Virus record (IMG/VR): IMGVR_UViG_2703719355_000011
Span: 1-4,960 of that record
Length of the DNA stretch: 4,960 bases
Direction: 5' to 3' (one strand)
DNA from: a virus
Taxonomy: Duplodnaviria > Heunggongvirae > Uroviricota > Caudoviricetes
Below are positions 1-4,960 of this stretch, in pieces; the stretch's first letter is position 1, and each line of letters begins with the position of its first letter. The position numbers were made by a program, and so were the translations under genes. The notes beneath the pieces were generated by a model. It saw nothing but the letters and a program-made list of their open reading frames with translations, was not told the DNA's origin and searched no databases.

Positions 1-353
1 TGGCGGGAATTGATATGCCGGATTTTGAGCGTGAGGATGACTGGTGGCGCAACGGTCAGAACCTTTACCTGGACAATATGGCGGTCACCGGCTTTTACCG
101 GGTGCCCCTGTCCTCTGCACAGGCGGGCGATATTCTGCTGTGCTGCTTTGGTGCTTCGGTACCGAACCATGCCGCCATTTACTGCGGCAACGGTGAGCTG
201 CTTCACCATCTGCCTGAACAACTGAGTAAACGGGAGAGGTATTCCGAAAAATGGCAACGACGAACGCATTCTGTCTGGCGTCACCGCCACTGGCACGCAT
301 CTGCCTTCACGGGGATTTGCAACGATTTGGCCGCCGCCTCAGCCTGTATGTGA
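1..353 (+). CDS. K: Tail assembly protein K (NlpC/P60-type tail tip assembly protein), C-terminal part; 5' end lies upstream of the window
   Basis: Reading frame 3 is open from the window edge (codons start at position 3) to the TAA ending at 353; the track ORF 15..353 is only the segment after the first internal ATG. The translation (MPDFEREDDWWRNGQNLYLDNMAVTGFYRVPLSSAQAGDILLCCFGASVPNHAAIYCGNGELLHHLPEQLSKRERY...) closely resembles the C-terminus of phage lambda gpK as I recall it. Position directly upstream of, and overlapping, an I homolog matches lambda gene order. Confidence 0.88.
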   Translation, partial: AGIDMPDFEREDDWWRNGQNLYLDNMAVTGFYRVPLSSAQAGDILLCCFGASVPNHAAIYCGNGELLHHLPEQLSKRERYSEKWQRRTHSVWRHRHWHASAFTGICNDLAAASACM

Positions 354-931
354 ACACGGCAGCGGAAGCCATTCGCGCCCTGTCGATGCAGATGCCGGGC
401 TTTCGCCGTCAGATGAACGAAGGCTGGTACCAGATACGTATTGCCGGTGATGACACGGCACCGGAGGCGGTGTACGCCCGTCTTCACGAACAGCTGGGTG
501 AGGGAACGGTCATCCACATTGTGCCGCGACTGGCCGGGGCCGGAAAGGGTGGACTGCAGATTGTGCTGGGGGCGGCGGCCATCGTGGGGTCGTTCTTCAC
601 TGCCGGGGCATCAATGGCGTTATGGGGTTCAGCCCTGGCAGCCGGCGGTTTTTCTGCCACCACGATGCTGTTTTCACTGGGTGCCAGCATGATACTGGGT
701 GGTGTGGCACAGATGCTGGCCCCGAAGCCAAAAACACCGGAATACAGGGCAACGGATAACGGTAAACAGAACACGTACTTTTCGTCGCTGGATAACATGA
801 TTGCCCAGGGGAACCCGATGCCGGTGCCTTACGGTGAAATGCTGGTTGGCTCACGGCGAATCTCCCAGGACATCAGTACCCGTGATGAAGGCGGTGACGG
901 GAAGGTGGTGGTTATCGGGCGGCAGGCATAA
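251..931 (+). CDS. I: Tail assembly protein I (tail tip assembly, ubiquitin-like N-terminus with Gly/Ala-rich hydrophobic C-terminal half)
   Basis: ATG at 251 preceded by the Shine-Dalgarno-like GGGAGAGG (231..238); 226-aa ORF ending at TAA 929..931. The translation (MATTNAFCLASPPLARICLHGDLQRFGRR...NGKQNTYFSSLDNMIAQGNPMPVPYGEMLVGSRRISQDISTRDEGGDGKVVVIGRQA) is recognisably similar to lambda gpI along its length. The 103-nt out-of-frame overlap with K (251..353) matches the lambda K/I arrangement. Confidence 0.93.
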   Translation: MATTNAFCLASPPLARICLHGDLQRFGRRLSLYVNTAAEAIRALSMQMPGFRRQMNEGWYQIRIAGDDTAPEAVYARLHEQLGEGTVIHIVPRLAGAGKGGLQIVLGAAAIVGSFFTAGASMALWGSALAAGGFSATTMLFSLGASMILGGVAQMLAPKPKTPEYRATDNGKQNTYFSSLDNMIAQGNPMPVPYGEMLVGSRRISQDISTRDEGGDGKVVVIGRQA

Positions 932-943
932 AAGCGAAAAAAT

Positions 944-967
944 CCCGCAGTGACCGAAGGCTGCGGG
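944..967 (-). terminator. Terminator-like hairpin (perfect 7-bp stem CCCGCAG/CTGCGGG, 10-nt loop) immediately 3' of I; the U-tract follows it only on the minus strand
   Basis: Seen directly: CCCGCAG (944..950), loop tgaccgaagg, CTGCGGG (961..967). On the + strand the downstream sequence is aacagaaaatg (not T-rich). On the - strand the hairpin is followed by ATTTTTTCGCTTT (complement of 931..943), which looks like an intrinsic terminator for a leftward transcript. No promoter was identified for such a transcript. Confidence 0.35.
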
Positions 968-968
968 A

Positions 969-984
969 ACAGAAAATGAAGATT
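969..984 (+). repeat. Direct repeat copy 1 (ACAGAAAATG-AAGAT) in the I-J spacer
   Basis: The 10-mer ACAGAAAATG at 969..978 is identical to 1059..1068, and the following AAGAT also recurs in copy 2 after a 2-nt TG insertion. Each copy sits just 3' of a GC-rich palindrome (944..967 and 1027..1058). Confidence 0.45.
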
Positions 985-1058
985 AACCACAGGGAGTTTT
1001 GTTTTTATTGGCCCGAAAAAACTGTAACGCCCGGGAATGATATCTGCCACGGGGGCGT

Positions 1059-1076
1059 ACAGAAAATGTGAAGATA
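1059..1076 (+). repeat. Direct repeat copy 2 (ACAGAAAATG-TG-AAGAT) in the I-J spacer
   Basis: Identical 10-mer to 969..978, about 90 bp downstream. Preceded by the imperfect palindrome ACGCCC...GGGCGT (1027..1032 / 1053..1058). Suggests an imperfect ~90-bp tandem duplication or paired binding sites. Confidence 0.45.
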
Positions 1077-1101
1077 TTCAGAATTTTTATTCAGTCATGA
1101 T

Positions 1102-1134
1102 ACAGGCATCCTCCGGGATGCCTGTTGTTTTTGT
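1102..1134 (+). terminator. Rho-independent terminator-like stem-loop (10-bp perfect stem, UCCG tetraloop, then TGTTTTTGT) 33 nt upstream of the J start codon
   Basis: Seen directly: ACAGGCATCC (1102..1111), loop TCCG (1112..1115), GGATGCCTGT (1116..1125), then tgtttttgt (1126..1134). The T-rich tract follows the hairpin only on the + strand. Strength and function are not measurable from sequence; in a late operon such a site would normally be read through by Q-antiterminated polymerase. Confidence 0.55.
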
Positions 1135-1166
1135 GCGTAACAGTTATCACAGTAAAGGGTGAGACA

Positions 1167-4100
1167 ATGGGCAAAGGTGGCGGCAAGGCGCACACGCCGG
1201 TTGAGGCAAAGGACAATCTTAAGTCCACGCAGATGATGAGCGTGATTGATGCGATTGGTGAAGGGCCGATTGAAGGTCCGGTGAAGGGGCTGCAGAGTAT
1301 CCTGGTGAACAAAACCCCGCTGACGGACACGGACGGTAATCCTGTGATACATGGTGTGACAGCGGTCTGGCGCGCCGGGGAGCAGGAGCAGACACCACCT
1401 GAAGGCTTTGAGTCCTCCGGGGCGGAAACCGCACTGGGCGTGGAAGTGACGAAGGCAAAGCCGGTGACGCGCACCATTACGTCCGCGAACATTGACCGCC
1501 TGCGGGTCACCTTCGGGGTGCAGTCACTGTTGGAGACCACCTCAAAGGGCGACCGTAATCCCTCTTCTGTCCGACTGCTGATTCAGTTACAGCGTAACGG
1601 TAACTGGGTGACGGAAAAGGATGTCACCATTAACGGCAAGACCACCTCGCAGTTTCTGGCGTCGGTGATTCTGGATAATCTGCCTCCCCGCCCCTTTAAC
1701 ATCCGGATGGTCAGGGAGACGGCGGACAGCACCACGGACCAGCTGCAGAACAGAACGCTGTGGTCGTCATACACCGAAATCATCGATGTGAAACAGTGCT
1801 ACCCGAACACGGCCATTGTGGGGATGCAGGTGGATGCGGAGCAGTTTGGTGGTCAGCAGATGACGGTGAACTACCATATCCGCGGTCGCATCATCCAGGT
1901 GCCGTCAAACTATGACCCGGAAAAACGCACGTACAGTGGTATCTGGGACGGCAGTCTGAAACCGGCATACAGCAACAATCCGGCCTGGTGTCTGTGGGAC
2001 ATGCTGACTCACCCGCGCTACGGCATGGGAAAACGTCTGGGGGCGGCGGATGTGGACAAGTGGGCGCTGTATGCCATCGGGCAGTACTGCGACCAGATGG
2101 TGCCGGATGGCTTCGGGGGCACCGAGCCGCGGATGACCTTCAATGCGTACCTGGCACAACAGCGTAAGGCGTGGGATGTTCTCAGTGATTTCTGCTCGGC
2201 GATGCGCTGTATGCCGGTATGGAACGGTCAGACGCTGACGTTCGTTCAGGACCGCCCGTCGGATGTGGTGTGGCCGTACACCAACAGCGATGTGGTGGTG
2301 GATGATAACGGCGTGGGATTCCGCTACAGCTTCAGTGCCCTGAAGGACCGGCACACGGCGGTGGAGGTGAATTACACCGACCCGCAGAACGGCTGGCAGA
2401 CCTCCACGGAACTGGTGGAAGACCCGGAAGCCATACTGCGCTACGGGCGCAATCTGCTGAAGATGGACGCGTTCGGCTGTACCAGCCGCGGTCAGGCCCA
2501 CCGTGCCGGACTGTGGGTGATAAAGACCGGACTGCTGGAAACGCAGACGGTGGATTTCACGCTCGGGTCTCAGGGGCTGCGGCACACACCCGGTGACATC
2601 ATTGAAATCTGTGATAACGACTATGCCGGGACCCTGACCGGCGGACGTGTCCTGTCCATTGATGCTGCCACCCGCACCCTGACGCTGGACCGTGAAGTGA
2701 CACTTCCGGAGACCGGTGCCGCCACGGTGAACCTGATTAACGGCAGCGGTAAGCCGGTGAGTGTGGACATCACCGAACACCCCGCGCCGGACCGGATACA
2801 GGTCAGTACCCTGCCTGATGGTGTGGAGACATACGGGGTGTGGGGACTCTCCCTGCCGTCACTGCGCCGTCGCCTGTTCCGCTGTGTCTCCGTCCGGGAA
2901 AACACGGACGGCACCTTTGCCATCACGGCGGTGCAGCACGTACCGGAAAAAGAAGCCATCGTGGATAACGGTGCCCGCTTTGAGCCGCAGTCAGGTTCCC
3001 TGAACAGCGTCATCCCACCGGCAGTGCAGCACCTGACGGTGGAGGTGAGCGCAGCTGACGGCCAGTATCTGGCGCAGGCGAAATGGGACACGCCGCGGGT
3101 GGTGAAGGGTGTGCGCTTCAGTCTGCGCCTGACCAGTGGTAAGGGAACGGATGCCAGACTGGTGACCACCGCCATCACCGCAGACACGGAGCACCGTTTC
3201 AGCGGCCTGCCGCTCGGGGAATACACCCTGACGGTGCGGGCGATAAACAGCTATGGCCAGCAGGGTGAACCTGCCACCACCACCTTCCGGATTGCCGCAC
3301 CGGCAGCACCGTCGCGGATTGAGCTGACGCCGGGCTATTTTCAGATAACCGCCACGCCGCATCTTGCCGTTTATGACCCGACGGTACAGTTTGAGTTCTG
3401 GTTCTCGGAAAAGCGGATTGCGGATATCAGGCAGGTTGAAACCGCAGCCCGCTATCTTGGCTCGGCGCTGTACTGGATAGCTGCCAGTATCAATATCAAA
3501 CCGGGCCATGATTATTATTTTTATATCCGCAGTGTGAATACTGTTGGCAAATCGGCATTCGTGGAGGCTGTCGGTCGGGCGAGCGATGATGCGGAAGGTT
3601 ACCTGGATTTTTTCAAAGGAGAAATCGGGAAAACACATCTGGCCCAGGAGCTGTGGACGCAGATTGATAACGGTCAGCTTGCGCCTGACCTGGCTGAAAT
3701 CAGGACGTCCATTACGGATGTCAGCAATGAAATCACGCAGACCGTCAATAAGAAACTGGAAGACCAGAGTGCGGCAATTCAGCAGATACAGAAGGTTCAG
3801 GTTGATACAAATAATAACCTGAACAGCATGTGGGCTGTGAAGCTGCAGCAGATGCAGGACGGACGCCTTTATATCGCGGGTATTGGTGCCGGTATTGAGA
3901 ACACCCCTGACGGCATGCAGAGTCAGGTGCTGCTGGCGGCAGACAGGATTGCGATGATTAATCCTGCGAATGGCAACACAAAGCCGATGTTTGTTGGGCA
4001 GGGCGATCAGATATTCATGAACGAAGTGTTCCTGAAACGCCTGACGGCTCCCACCATTACCAGCGGCGGTAATCCTCCGGTATTTTCCCTGACACCGGAC

Positions 4101-4640
4101 GGGCGGCTGACGGCGAAAAATGCCGATATCAGCGGTAACGTGAATGCGAACTCCGGGACGCTCAACAACGTCACGATTAACGAGAACTGTCGGGTTCTGG
4201 GAAAACTGTCCGCGAACCAGATTGAAGGCGATCTCGTTAAAACAGTGAGCAAAGCTTTCCCCCGGGACTCCCGTGCACCGGAACGGTGGCCATCAGGGAC
4301 CATCACCGTCAGGGTTTATGACGATCAGCCCTTTGACCGGCAGATTGTTATTCCGGCGGTGGCATTCAGCGGCGCTAAACATGAGCGGGAGAATAACGAT
4401 ATTTATTCGTCATGCCGCCTGATAGTACGGAAAAACGGTGCTGAAATTTATAACCGTACCGCGCTGGATAATACGCTGATTTACAGTGGTGTTATTGATA
4501 TGCCTGCCGGTCACGGTCACATGACACTGGAGTTTTCGGTGTCAGCATGGCTGGTAAATAACTGGTATCCCACAGCAAGTATCAGCGATTTGCTGGTTGT
4601 GGTGATGAAGAAAGCCACTGCAGGCATCACGATTAGCTGA
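1167..4640 (+). CDS. J: Tail tip / host specificity protein J (central tail fibre, lambda gpJ family), 1157 aa
   Basis: Track ORF 1125..4640; the start is more likely the in-frame ATG at 1167 ([22 protein letters not shown]...), preceded by the purine-rich AAAGGGTGAG (1154..1163), whereas 1125 lies inside the upstream hairpin. The N-terminus and many internal blocks (e.g. [103 protein letters not shown]) match lambda gpJ as I recall it. Size and position after K-I and before lom fit. Confidence 0.96.
3015..3302 (+). other. Fibronectin type III-like domain within J (approx. aa 617..712)
   Basis: Segment [42 protein letters not shown]...[28 protein letters not shown] has the length and alternating beta-strand pattern (W...Y.L.V.A) typical of FN3 domains reported in gpJ-family proteins. 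Assigned by eye, not by a profile search. Confidence 0.5.
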
Positions 4641-4659
4641 ATTTTATAACCCAGATACG

Positions 4660-4686
4660 GGCGCCAGAAATGGTGCCTTTTTTATT
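4660..4686 (+). terminator. Rho-independent terminator-like hairpin (7-bp stem with one G-U pair, GAAA tetraloop, T6 tract) between J and lom
   Basis: Seen directly: GGCGCCA (4660..4666), GAAA (4667..4670), TGGTGCC (4671..4677), then ttttttatt (4678..4686). It begins 20 nt after the J stop (TGA 4638..4640) and ends 22 nt before the lom ATG. Confidence 0.55.
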
Positions 4687-4707
4687 GCAGAAAAGCGAGA
4701 GGTAATT

Positions 4708-4960
4708 ATGCGTAAAGTTTGTGCAGCCATTTTGTCCGCAGCCATCTGTCTGTCCGTATCCGGTGCGCCTGCATGGGCATCTGAACATCAGTCCACGCTG
4801 AGCGCGGGGTATCTCCATGCCTCGACGAACGTTCCCGGTAGTGATGATCTGAACGGGATTAACGTGAAATACCGTTATGAGTTTACGGACACTCTGGGAA
4901 TGGTGACGTCATTCAGCTATGCAGGAGACAAGAATCGCCAGCTGACCCGTTACAGCGATA
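4708..4960 (+). CDS. lom: Lom-like outer membrane protein (Ail/Lom/PagC/OmpX beta-barrel family), N-terminal 84 codons; 3' end lies beyond the window
   Basis: ATG at 4708 preceded by GAGAGG (4696..4701); the frame is open to the window end, so it is absent from the stop-bounded ORF track. The translation (MRKVCAAILSAAICLSVSGAPAWASEHQSTLSAGYLHASTNVPGSDDLNGINVKYRYEFTDTLGMVTSFSYAGDKNRQLTRYSD) has a signal-peptide-like N-terminus (hydrophobic core, APAWA-SEH cleavage-like site) and closely resembles lambda Lom as I recall it. Position directly after J matches lambda. Confidence 0.92.
   Translation, partial: MRKVCAAILSAAICLSVSGAPAWASEHQSTLSAGYLHASTNVPGSDDLNGINVKYRYEFTDTLGMVTSFSYAGDKNRQLTRYSD

Follow-up and report, generated by a model that had tools for sequence, protein, structure and literature searches.

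The window considered here, the whole 4,960-nt stretch of DNA that was analysed, corresponds to the tail region of a lambda-like prophage from Shiga-toxin-producing E. coli. Its genes are arranged in the order K, I, a gap of 235 nt, J and lom. The gene for tail assembly protein I occupies 350..931 of the plus strand, with a TAA stop at 929-931, following the RefSeq annotation of the matching O26:H11 locus, to which window positions 900-1200 are identical; 592 relatives were found in IMG/VR. The tail tip or host specificity protein J is encoded on the same strand at 1167..4640, its start at the ATG at 1167 being confirmed by an alignment to the lambda J N-terminus, and a Shine-Dalgarno region, AAGGGTGAG, can be read at 1155..1163 (plus strand). 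Only the 5' part of lom, a gene of the Ail/Lom family, is included (4708..4960, plus strand), the gene running past the window end. The Q gene, its loading site and the late promoter lie outside the 4,960-nt window. The 301 nt around the hairpin that forms the subject of this analysis are identical in many prophages of Shiga-toxin-producing E. coli, including those of O26:H11 strain 11368 and of O121 strains, and show 91-99% identity to Stx1- and Stx2-converting phages.

The I-J hairpin and its counterpart after J

Within the gap between I and J lies a perfect 10-bp stem with six G-C pairs and a UCCG loop of the UNCG class (1102..1125, plus strand), the terminator-like element under study. Positions 1102-1135 read ACAGGCATCC, TCCG and GGATGCCTGT, followed by the U-rich tail TGTTTTTGTG at 1126..1135 (plus strand), with the U-rich tract UGUUUUUGUG placed directly 3' of the stem. 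The first-pass annotation had singled out this perfect, GC-rich stem and UNCG loop as a strong terminator-like structure, and the description is well founded. The predicted folding energy of the RNA is -19.3 kcal/mol, compared with -9.2 ± 2.4 kcal/mol for shuffled sequences (z = -4.2), and none of 200 shuffles matches it. When the 235-nt gap itself is shuffled, any qualifying hairpin followed by a T-run arises in only 0.8% of trials. A consensus scan of the whole window found seven terminator-like sites against 4.4 expected, a count unremarkable in itself, with the I-J hairpin as the top site. The hairpin lies on the late-sense strand, and the minus strand has no U-run after the stem. The distances noted at first pass also hold: the T-run ends 32-33 nt before the J ATG at 1167 and the Shine-Dalgarno region follows about 20 nt downstream, the stem itself ending 41 nt before the ATG. 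The element has the GC-rich stem-loop, the 3' U-tract and the intergenic position on the sense strand expected of an intrinsic terminator.

A second terminator-like hairpin, with eight pairs (GGGCGCC..GGTGCCT) and the tail TTTTTTATTG, is found at 4659..4688 of the plus strand, between the J stop (4640) and the lom start (4708). J is bracketed by terminator-like hairpins, at 1102-1125 and at 4659-4688. Counterparts of the second hairpin are present in lambda and in the O26 prophage, and expression of lom from the repressed lambda prophage has been reported (PMC3594210).

A PasB-family gene and its probable promoter region on the opposite strand

The main occupant of the gap, missed at first pass, is a gene of the PasB family of Hfq-dependent small RNAs, encoded on the minus strand at approximately 937..1015. 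Its ends are set by homology with the small RNA of EPEC, and the 5' end may perhaps be near 1030. The terminator (937..968, minus strand) is composed of a stem, TCCCGCAG/CTGCGGGA (968..943), with a 10-nt loop and a U6 run (942..937), and corresponds to the northern probe and the reported 3' end of EPEC PasB; the probe, AATCCCGCAGTGATCGCGGAGCT, matches window positions 941-965 by resemblance. EPEC PasB is an 83-nt RNA from the minus strand of NC_011601 (1466343..1466261; PMC8550237 Table S6), stabilised by Hfq, detected on northern blots and associated with many RIL-seq partners (PMC8550237). Its coordinates place it exactly between I and J of prophage PP6, on the strand opposite the tail operon, and the PP6 gap aligns with that of the window over the full gap length at a mean column identity of 88%. 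PasB has been described as embedded in a phage structural-gene operon (2026 preprint, doi 10.64898/2026.05.13.724894). On homology, synteny and a terminator shared with EPEC PasB, the gap is identified as carrying a PasB homologue. A search of the whole window against Rfam, on both strands, returned no match at E ≤ 1; PasB therefore matched no family in that release. The hairpin at 1102-1125 is not part of the PasB RNA, being located upstream of the PasB promoter region.

Related RNAs have been recorded in EHEC. The Hfq-CRAC peaks EcOnc22, EcOnc23 and EcOnc24 of strain Sakai are situated in the I-J gaps of Sp15, Sp14 and Sp11, respectively, antisense to the late operon, and EcOnc22, seen as a band of about 85 nt, is less stable in the absence of Hfq. 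Taken at face value on NC_002695.2, these peaks would fall on the hairpin, in antisense, a placement that was considered and rejected. The peak coordinates, published in 2014, refer to NC_002695.1 and not to NC_002695.2, and calibration with AgvB and STnc100 gave an offset of about +137 to +146 at 1.94 Mb and of at least +99 at 3.49 Mb. Since the coordinates are shifted by this version offset, the corrected peaks would come to lie on the PasB-like body. For reference, the equivalent of the window U-tract in Sakai Sp15 is at approximately 2902732-2902741 of NC_002695.2, on the minus strand, and the J starts next to the three Sakai gaps, all of the type designated class A below, are at 2166671, 2676621 and 2902690. 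EcOnc22-24 probably belong to the PasB family; Table S6 of the EPEC study (PMC8550237) gives no EHEC homologue for PasB. Published data on the homologues PasB (EPEC) and EcOnc22 (Sakai) support, by analogy, expression of the cargo of the gap from a repressed prophage. Other small RNAs of such phages were rejected as candidates: anti-sRNAs of the AgvB/AsxR type are sited at the moron site near the late promoter rather than in the tail region, and PasA, PasC and PasD are located near Q and the lysis genes rather than in the I-J gap.

Two sites may contribute to leftward transcription of pasB. The family alignment points to a conserved -10-like hexamer at 1037..1042 (minus strand), which reads TATCAT in the window, TATAAT in EPEC and in the gaps designated class B below, and AATAAT in Sakai. 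This hexamer was missed by the consensus promoter scan because its -35 element is weak. Further from pasB, an AT-rich block at 1061..1100 is near-invariant while its flanks vary, and probably constitutes a promoter or regulatory region for leftward cargo. It is kept up to about position 1090 in class B gaps, which are without the hairpin, and in one locus (L165) it is kept beside the start of a minus-strand protein gene. The PasB promoter could be assigned to the hexamer at 1037-1042, but the arrangement in L165 suggests activity within 1061-1100. Overall, the block seems to drive leftward cargo of varied kinds. In four loci (L143, L152, L172 and L184) the promoter block is duplicated and accompanied by a second small-RNA-like cassette with a different terminator.

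The plus strand of the gap contains a 31-codon open reading frame (window 977-1072), antisense to PasB, which starts at ATGAAGATTAA, the complement of the most conserved segment of PasB. A plus-strand gene for this 31-residue peptide, ended by the hairpin, was rejected as an explanation: many variants have ACG instead of ATG, the predicted peptides are anywhere from 16 to 41 residues long, and their C-termini bear no relation to one another.

Conservation within the prophage family and the same junction in other phages

Gap classes were defined from 77 IMG/VR loci with a near-identical I protein and a recognisable J start. Class A (43 loci; 235-259 nt) contains PasB and a hairpin of the 1102-1125 type. 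Class B (14 loci; about 343 nt) contains a PasB-like gene, the promoter block and a different, two-way hairpin of 12-13 bp about 100 nt before J. Class C (20 loci; about 851 nt) contains a PasB-like gene together with sodC on the minus strand. The sodC gene encodes a Cu/Zn superoxide dismutase, and the PasB-like sequence remains downstream of it. No convincing plus-strand terminator was found before J in the class C gaps (20 of the 77 loci, for example L007). Because the class C gap with sodC has no hairpin, the hairpin appears dispensable for J expression.

Where the hairpin is present, its position is fixed. Among IMG/VR contigs, 114 of the 116 evaluable occurrences lie 41-65 nt upstream of the J start, and this confinement to the I-J junction rules out a dispersed, REP-like repeat. 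Each of the ten distinct class A variants retains the stem, 98% of alignment cells being paired, and the EPEC stem is also kept, with C:G replacing T:A. Covariation is weak: a single pair has changed in both arms, from T:A to C:G, and a score as high as that observed is reached by 61 of 500 shuffles. All variants have a T-run after the stem, even where the downstream sequence diverges. Downstream of it, three unrelated types of J 5' UTR are found on the same hairpin. The left arm of the stem is inherited together with the PasB block, and the right arm follows the J 5' UTR type; since the arms are linked to different flanks, the hairpin itself may be regarded as a recombination junction. In the mismatched stems, with T.G in L070 and C.A in L009, the left arm comes from one haplotype and the right arm from the other. 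The two haplotypes and these mismatched intermediates look like recombinants that have crossed over inside the hairpin, between PasB and J modules.

A terminator-like hairpin before J is by no means restricted to this family. Such a hairpin was found in 13 of the 14 I-J gaps of at least 50 nt that were examined, that of lambda included, and every sampled lambda-like phage outside the prophage family with a gap of at least 50 nt has a sense-strand GC-rich hairpin followed by a T-run. The phages concerned are lambda, PhiR57_1, phi458, HK106, Fraca, phi80, Klebsiella phage KLB28, Serratia phage Bigdog and Pseudomonas phage Medea1. An I|J hairpin is also found in two virulent T1-like phages, Webervirus K2069PH1 and Tlsvirus U136B. 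The stems in these other phages end 16-53 nt before J and are unrelated in sequence, and in each of the gaps no more than 0.8% of shuffles yield a qualifying match. At least nine unrelated stem sequences occupy the I|J junction in phages of several host genera. No I|J hairpin was found in the Stenotrophomonas and Burkholderia phages or in Vibrio phage pVa-8, all of which have I and J genes that overlap or almost touch. Phages with a J homologue account for 1633 records. A genome-wide scan for more distant relatives of J contributed little further diversity, most of what it retrieved being lambda contamination in unrelated assemblies. J sequences of lambda or E. coli prophages occur in assemblies labelled Streptomyces, Neobacillus, Chromatium, Shewanella and Bradyrhizobium (L085, L088-L105 and others), and these are almost certainly contamination or spike-in DNA.

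The late operon of lambda has hairpins with T-runs at five sites (D|E, E|FI, I|J, J|lom and lom|orf401), which make up nearly all of its intercistronic gaps, and none of these gap hairpins is annotated in the lambda RefSeq record that was examined. In the O26 prophage the corresponding sites are I|J, J|lom, lom|stf and a position after stf. A terminator between co-transcribed late genes had been presented at first pass as a surprise, a view that is mistaken given five such gaps in lambda and the prevalence of I-J hairpins recorded above. The element is ordinary rather than surprising, and opens no long-standing question. Annotated terminators at the I|J junction of phi80 and KLB28 were already known, as were terminators inside antiterminated late operons; a literature search for a described lambda I-J terminator found nothing relevant. 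What the analysis adds is the recognition of the PasB/EcOnc22-24 gene in the gap, with the order PasB terminator, PasB, promoter block and rightward terminator, as well as the suggestion, from the survey, that lambda-like tail modules, lambda among them, almost constantly have a terminator just before J.

The closest annotated parallels are the terminator of the MorF moron in phi80 (FN582354 16718-16746) and a terminator in KLB28 (PP582755 18388-18412), each just upstream of J. Like the hairpin of the window, these have a GC-rich stem, a tetraloop and a T-run, and lie in the late sense within the I-J gap; theirs are 16-25 nt before J and have no sequence similarity to that of the window. In phi80, as in the window, extra DNA has been inserted after I, and the hairpin marks its J-proximal end. 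The two differ in that the inserted gene of phi80 runs rightward and the hairpin is its own terminator, whereas pasB in the window runs leftward and is terminated at the other end of the gap. The I-J hairpin of lambda itself (NC_001416, approximately 15461-15484) has 8-10 pairs, a 4-nt loop and the tail TTTTGTCATTT, and ends 20 nt before J, at the same junction and on the same strand. Unlike the 235-nt gap of the window, that of lambda measures 60 nt and holds no cargo, and the stem is unrelated.

Parallels may also be drawn with moron elements such as HK97 gene 15 and lambda lom and bor, in which, as in the window, extra DNA at a fixed junction is bracketed by transcription signals. Morons carry their own promoter and terminator and are hence expressed from repressed prophages (PMC3594210). 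Cargo at the I-J junction differs by phage, being pasB, sodC or morF, and lies between the I stop and J, upstream of the terminator where one is present. In contrast to morons, the cargo of the window is a non-coding RNA in reverse orientation. The hairpin was rejected as the terminator of such a moron cassette, as pasB, the one cargo gene with support, is transcribed from the minus strand and has a terminator of its own at 937-968. The annotation of I-J gaps in Shiga-toxin-associated prophages should gain a leftward PasB-family gene, a promoter block and a rightward terminator, and none of these three features is annotated in the four E. coli loci that were examined.

Role of the hairpin at the I|J boundary

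We regard it as reasonably probable that the hairpin is an ordinary intrinsic terminator at the I|J boundary, obeyed in the lysogen and read through by Q-modified polymerase. In a repressed prophage, unmodified polymerase moving rightward would stop at about 1130-1135 and not enter J. Such polymerase could stem from read-through or from spurious starts, and would include transcription that had crossed the leftward pasB cassette. After induction, Q-modified polymerase from the late promoter would ignore this hairpin and the others in the late operon, and its read-through would allow I and J to be co-transcribed. Polymerase modified by Q is known to pass intrinsic terminators (reviewed in PMC7547250). 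The hairpin would be the local version of the I|J terminator found across lambda-like tail modules, and the leftward pasB cassette, comprising the small RNA and its promoter block, seems to have entered between the I stop and a terminator already resident there, much as morF in phi80. Such an I|J terminator may help to explain how cargo can be expressed in the lysogen without the host-range gene J being switched on.

We infer termination at the hairpin, its override by Q and its purpose chiefly by analogy with lambda. The analogy extends to lambda tR', likewise an intrinsic terminator on the late transcript that Q-modified polymerase would be expected to ignore; tR' comes directly after the late promoter and serves as an on/off switch, whereas the hairpin of the window is deep inside the operon. 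Strict dependence on Q had been proposed at first pass for J and lom together. Q dependence is retained here as the favoured reading, drawn from lambda biology; the pairing of the two genes is imprecise, as the hairpin at 4659-4688 separates them. Against termination with Q override as the role of the hairpin, the consensus scan found no sigma-70-like promoter on the plus strand of the gap, and so no local rightward promoter needing a stop.

The virulent T1-like phages K2069PH1 and U136B are assumed to be without Q. If so, Q-dependent read-through is not the whole explanation of the wider pattern, which, with these phages included, points to a possible broader function in marking unit boundaries or stabilising RNA. 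After the I|J terminator, both phages carry TGTACAAT, an extended -10-like motif (approximately 620-660 in L134, the K2069PH1 locus, and 605-645 in L135, the U136B locus). The sequences suggest that J may open a new transcription unit in K2069PH1 and U136B.

One alternative holds that the hairpin is mainly an RNA 3'-end or stability element, which would protect the tail-assembly mRNA from 3'-to-5' exonucleases after cleavage or partial termination. It would then set the ratio of upstream products to J, and could work alongside termination. Similar hairpins after the highly expressed lambda genes D and E are in keeping with this role, and the I|J hairpin in T1-like phages, if these are without Q as assumed, calls for a function independent of Q. 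On the other hand, I is not a high-copy structural protein, and the class C gap manages without a hairpin. Stability as the main function is, on balance, unlikely. We attach a low probability, too, to a pair of more far-reaching proposals: that the hairpin forms the 3' end of an anti-PasB RNA in a cis-antisense pair, or that the I|J terminator is a dosage or processing signal independent of Q. On the former, PasB would dominate in the lysogen, and induction would bring abundant late-sense RNA across the gap that removes PasB; on the latter, lambda-like tail modules would conserve the I|J terminator as a signal for dosage or processing, functional also where Q is absent.

A further alternative is that the hairpin ends a discrete late-sense small RNA, starting somewhere within the gap or derived from the I 3' UTR. 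Being fully complementary to PasB, this RNA could serve as an antisense partner of PasB or as a sponge for it. The complement of PasB would be included in any rightward transcript that ends at 1134, and the segment 1050-1134, with an AU-rich stretch before the hairpin, folds well (z = -2.8). The suggestion made at first pass, that the hairpin ends a short transcript from the spacer, is of this kind and finds little in its favour. The gap has no promoter-like site on the plus strand, and the small open reading frame is not conserved. None of 63 Sakai CRAC peaks falls on the late-sense strand at the three gap copies, and the EPEC RIL-seq data show no entry for the I 3' UTR, the J 5' UTR or the intergenic region among the matches listed; no sense-strand Hfq-bound RNA appears among those listed for EHEC and EPEC. 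The presence of the block without a hairpin in class B, and of the block beside a leftward gene in L165, fits a leftward promoter better. A discrete late-sense RNA ending at the hairpin is very unlikely.

It is likewise very improbable that the hairpin is a functionless relic, whether the scar of a former rightward moron or a mere recombination junction. In favour of a relic, the annotation of phi80 assigns the counterpart to the rightward MorF moron as its terminator, crossovers are placed within the hairpin, and class C lacks it. Without selection, however, it is hard to see why nine or more unrelated stems should occupy one junction. Alternatively, the 24-bp palindrome might be a DNA site at which a dimeric protein regulates the neighbouring leftward promoter, rather than an RNA element. 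A perfect inverted repeat abutting the conserved promoter block would suit such a site, and symmetric half-site changes (T:A to C:G) are also expected where a protein binds. A DNA site would leave the conserved T-run without a role, and would account neither for the unrelated hairpins and T-runs at the same place in phages without PasB nor for class B, which keeps the promoter block without the palindrome; we consider it highly improbable.

Control of J translation through RNA structure, also raised at first pass, is scarcely credible: the ribosome-binding site lies only some 20 nt downstream of the T-run and a small local UCAC/GUGA hairpin can partly pair with the Shine-Dalgarno region, but the stem, at its distance from the ATG, is unpaired with the ribosome-binding site in the predicted folds, and the unrelated J leaders share one hairpin. 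In one type of J leader the copy number of the heptamer CAGACAT varies: the J 5' UTR of one locus (L014) contains three full copies and one partial copy, compared with one full and one partial copy elsewhere.
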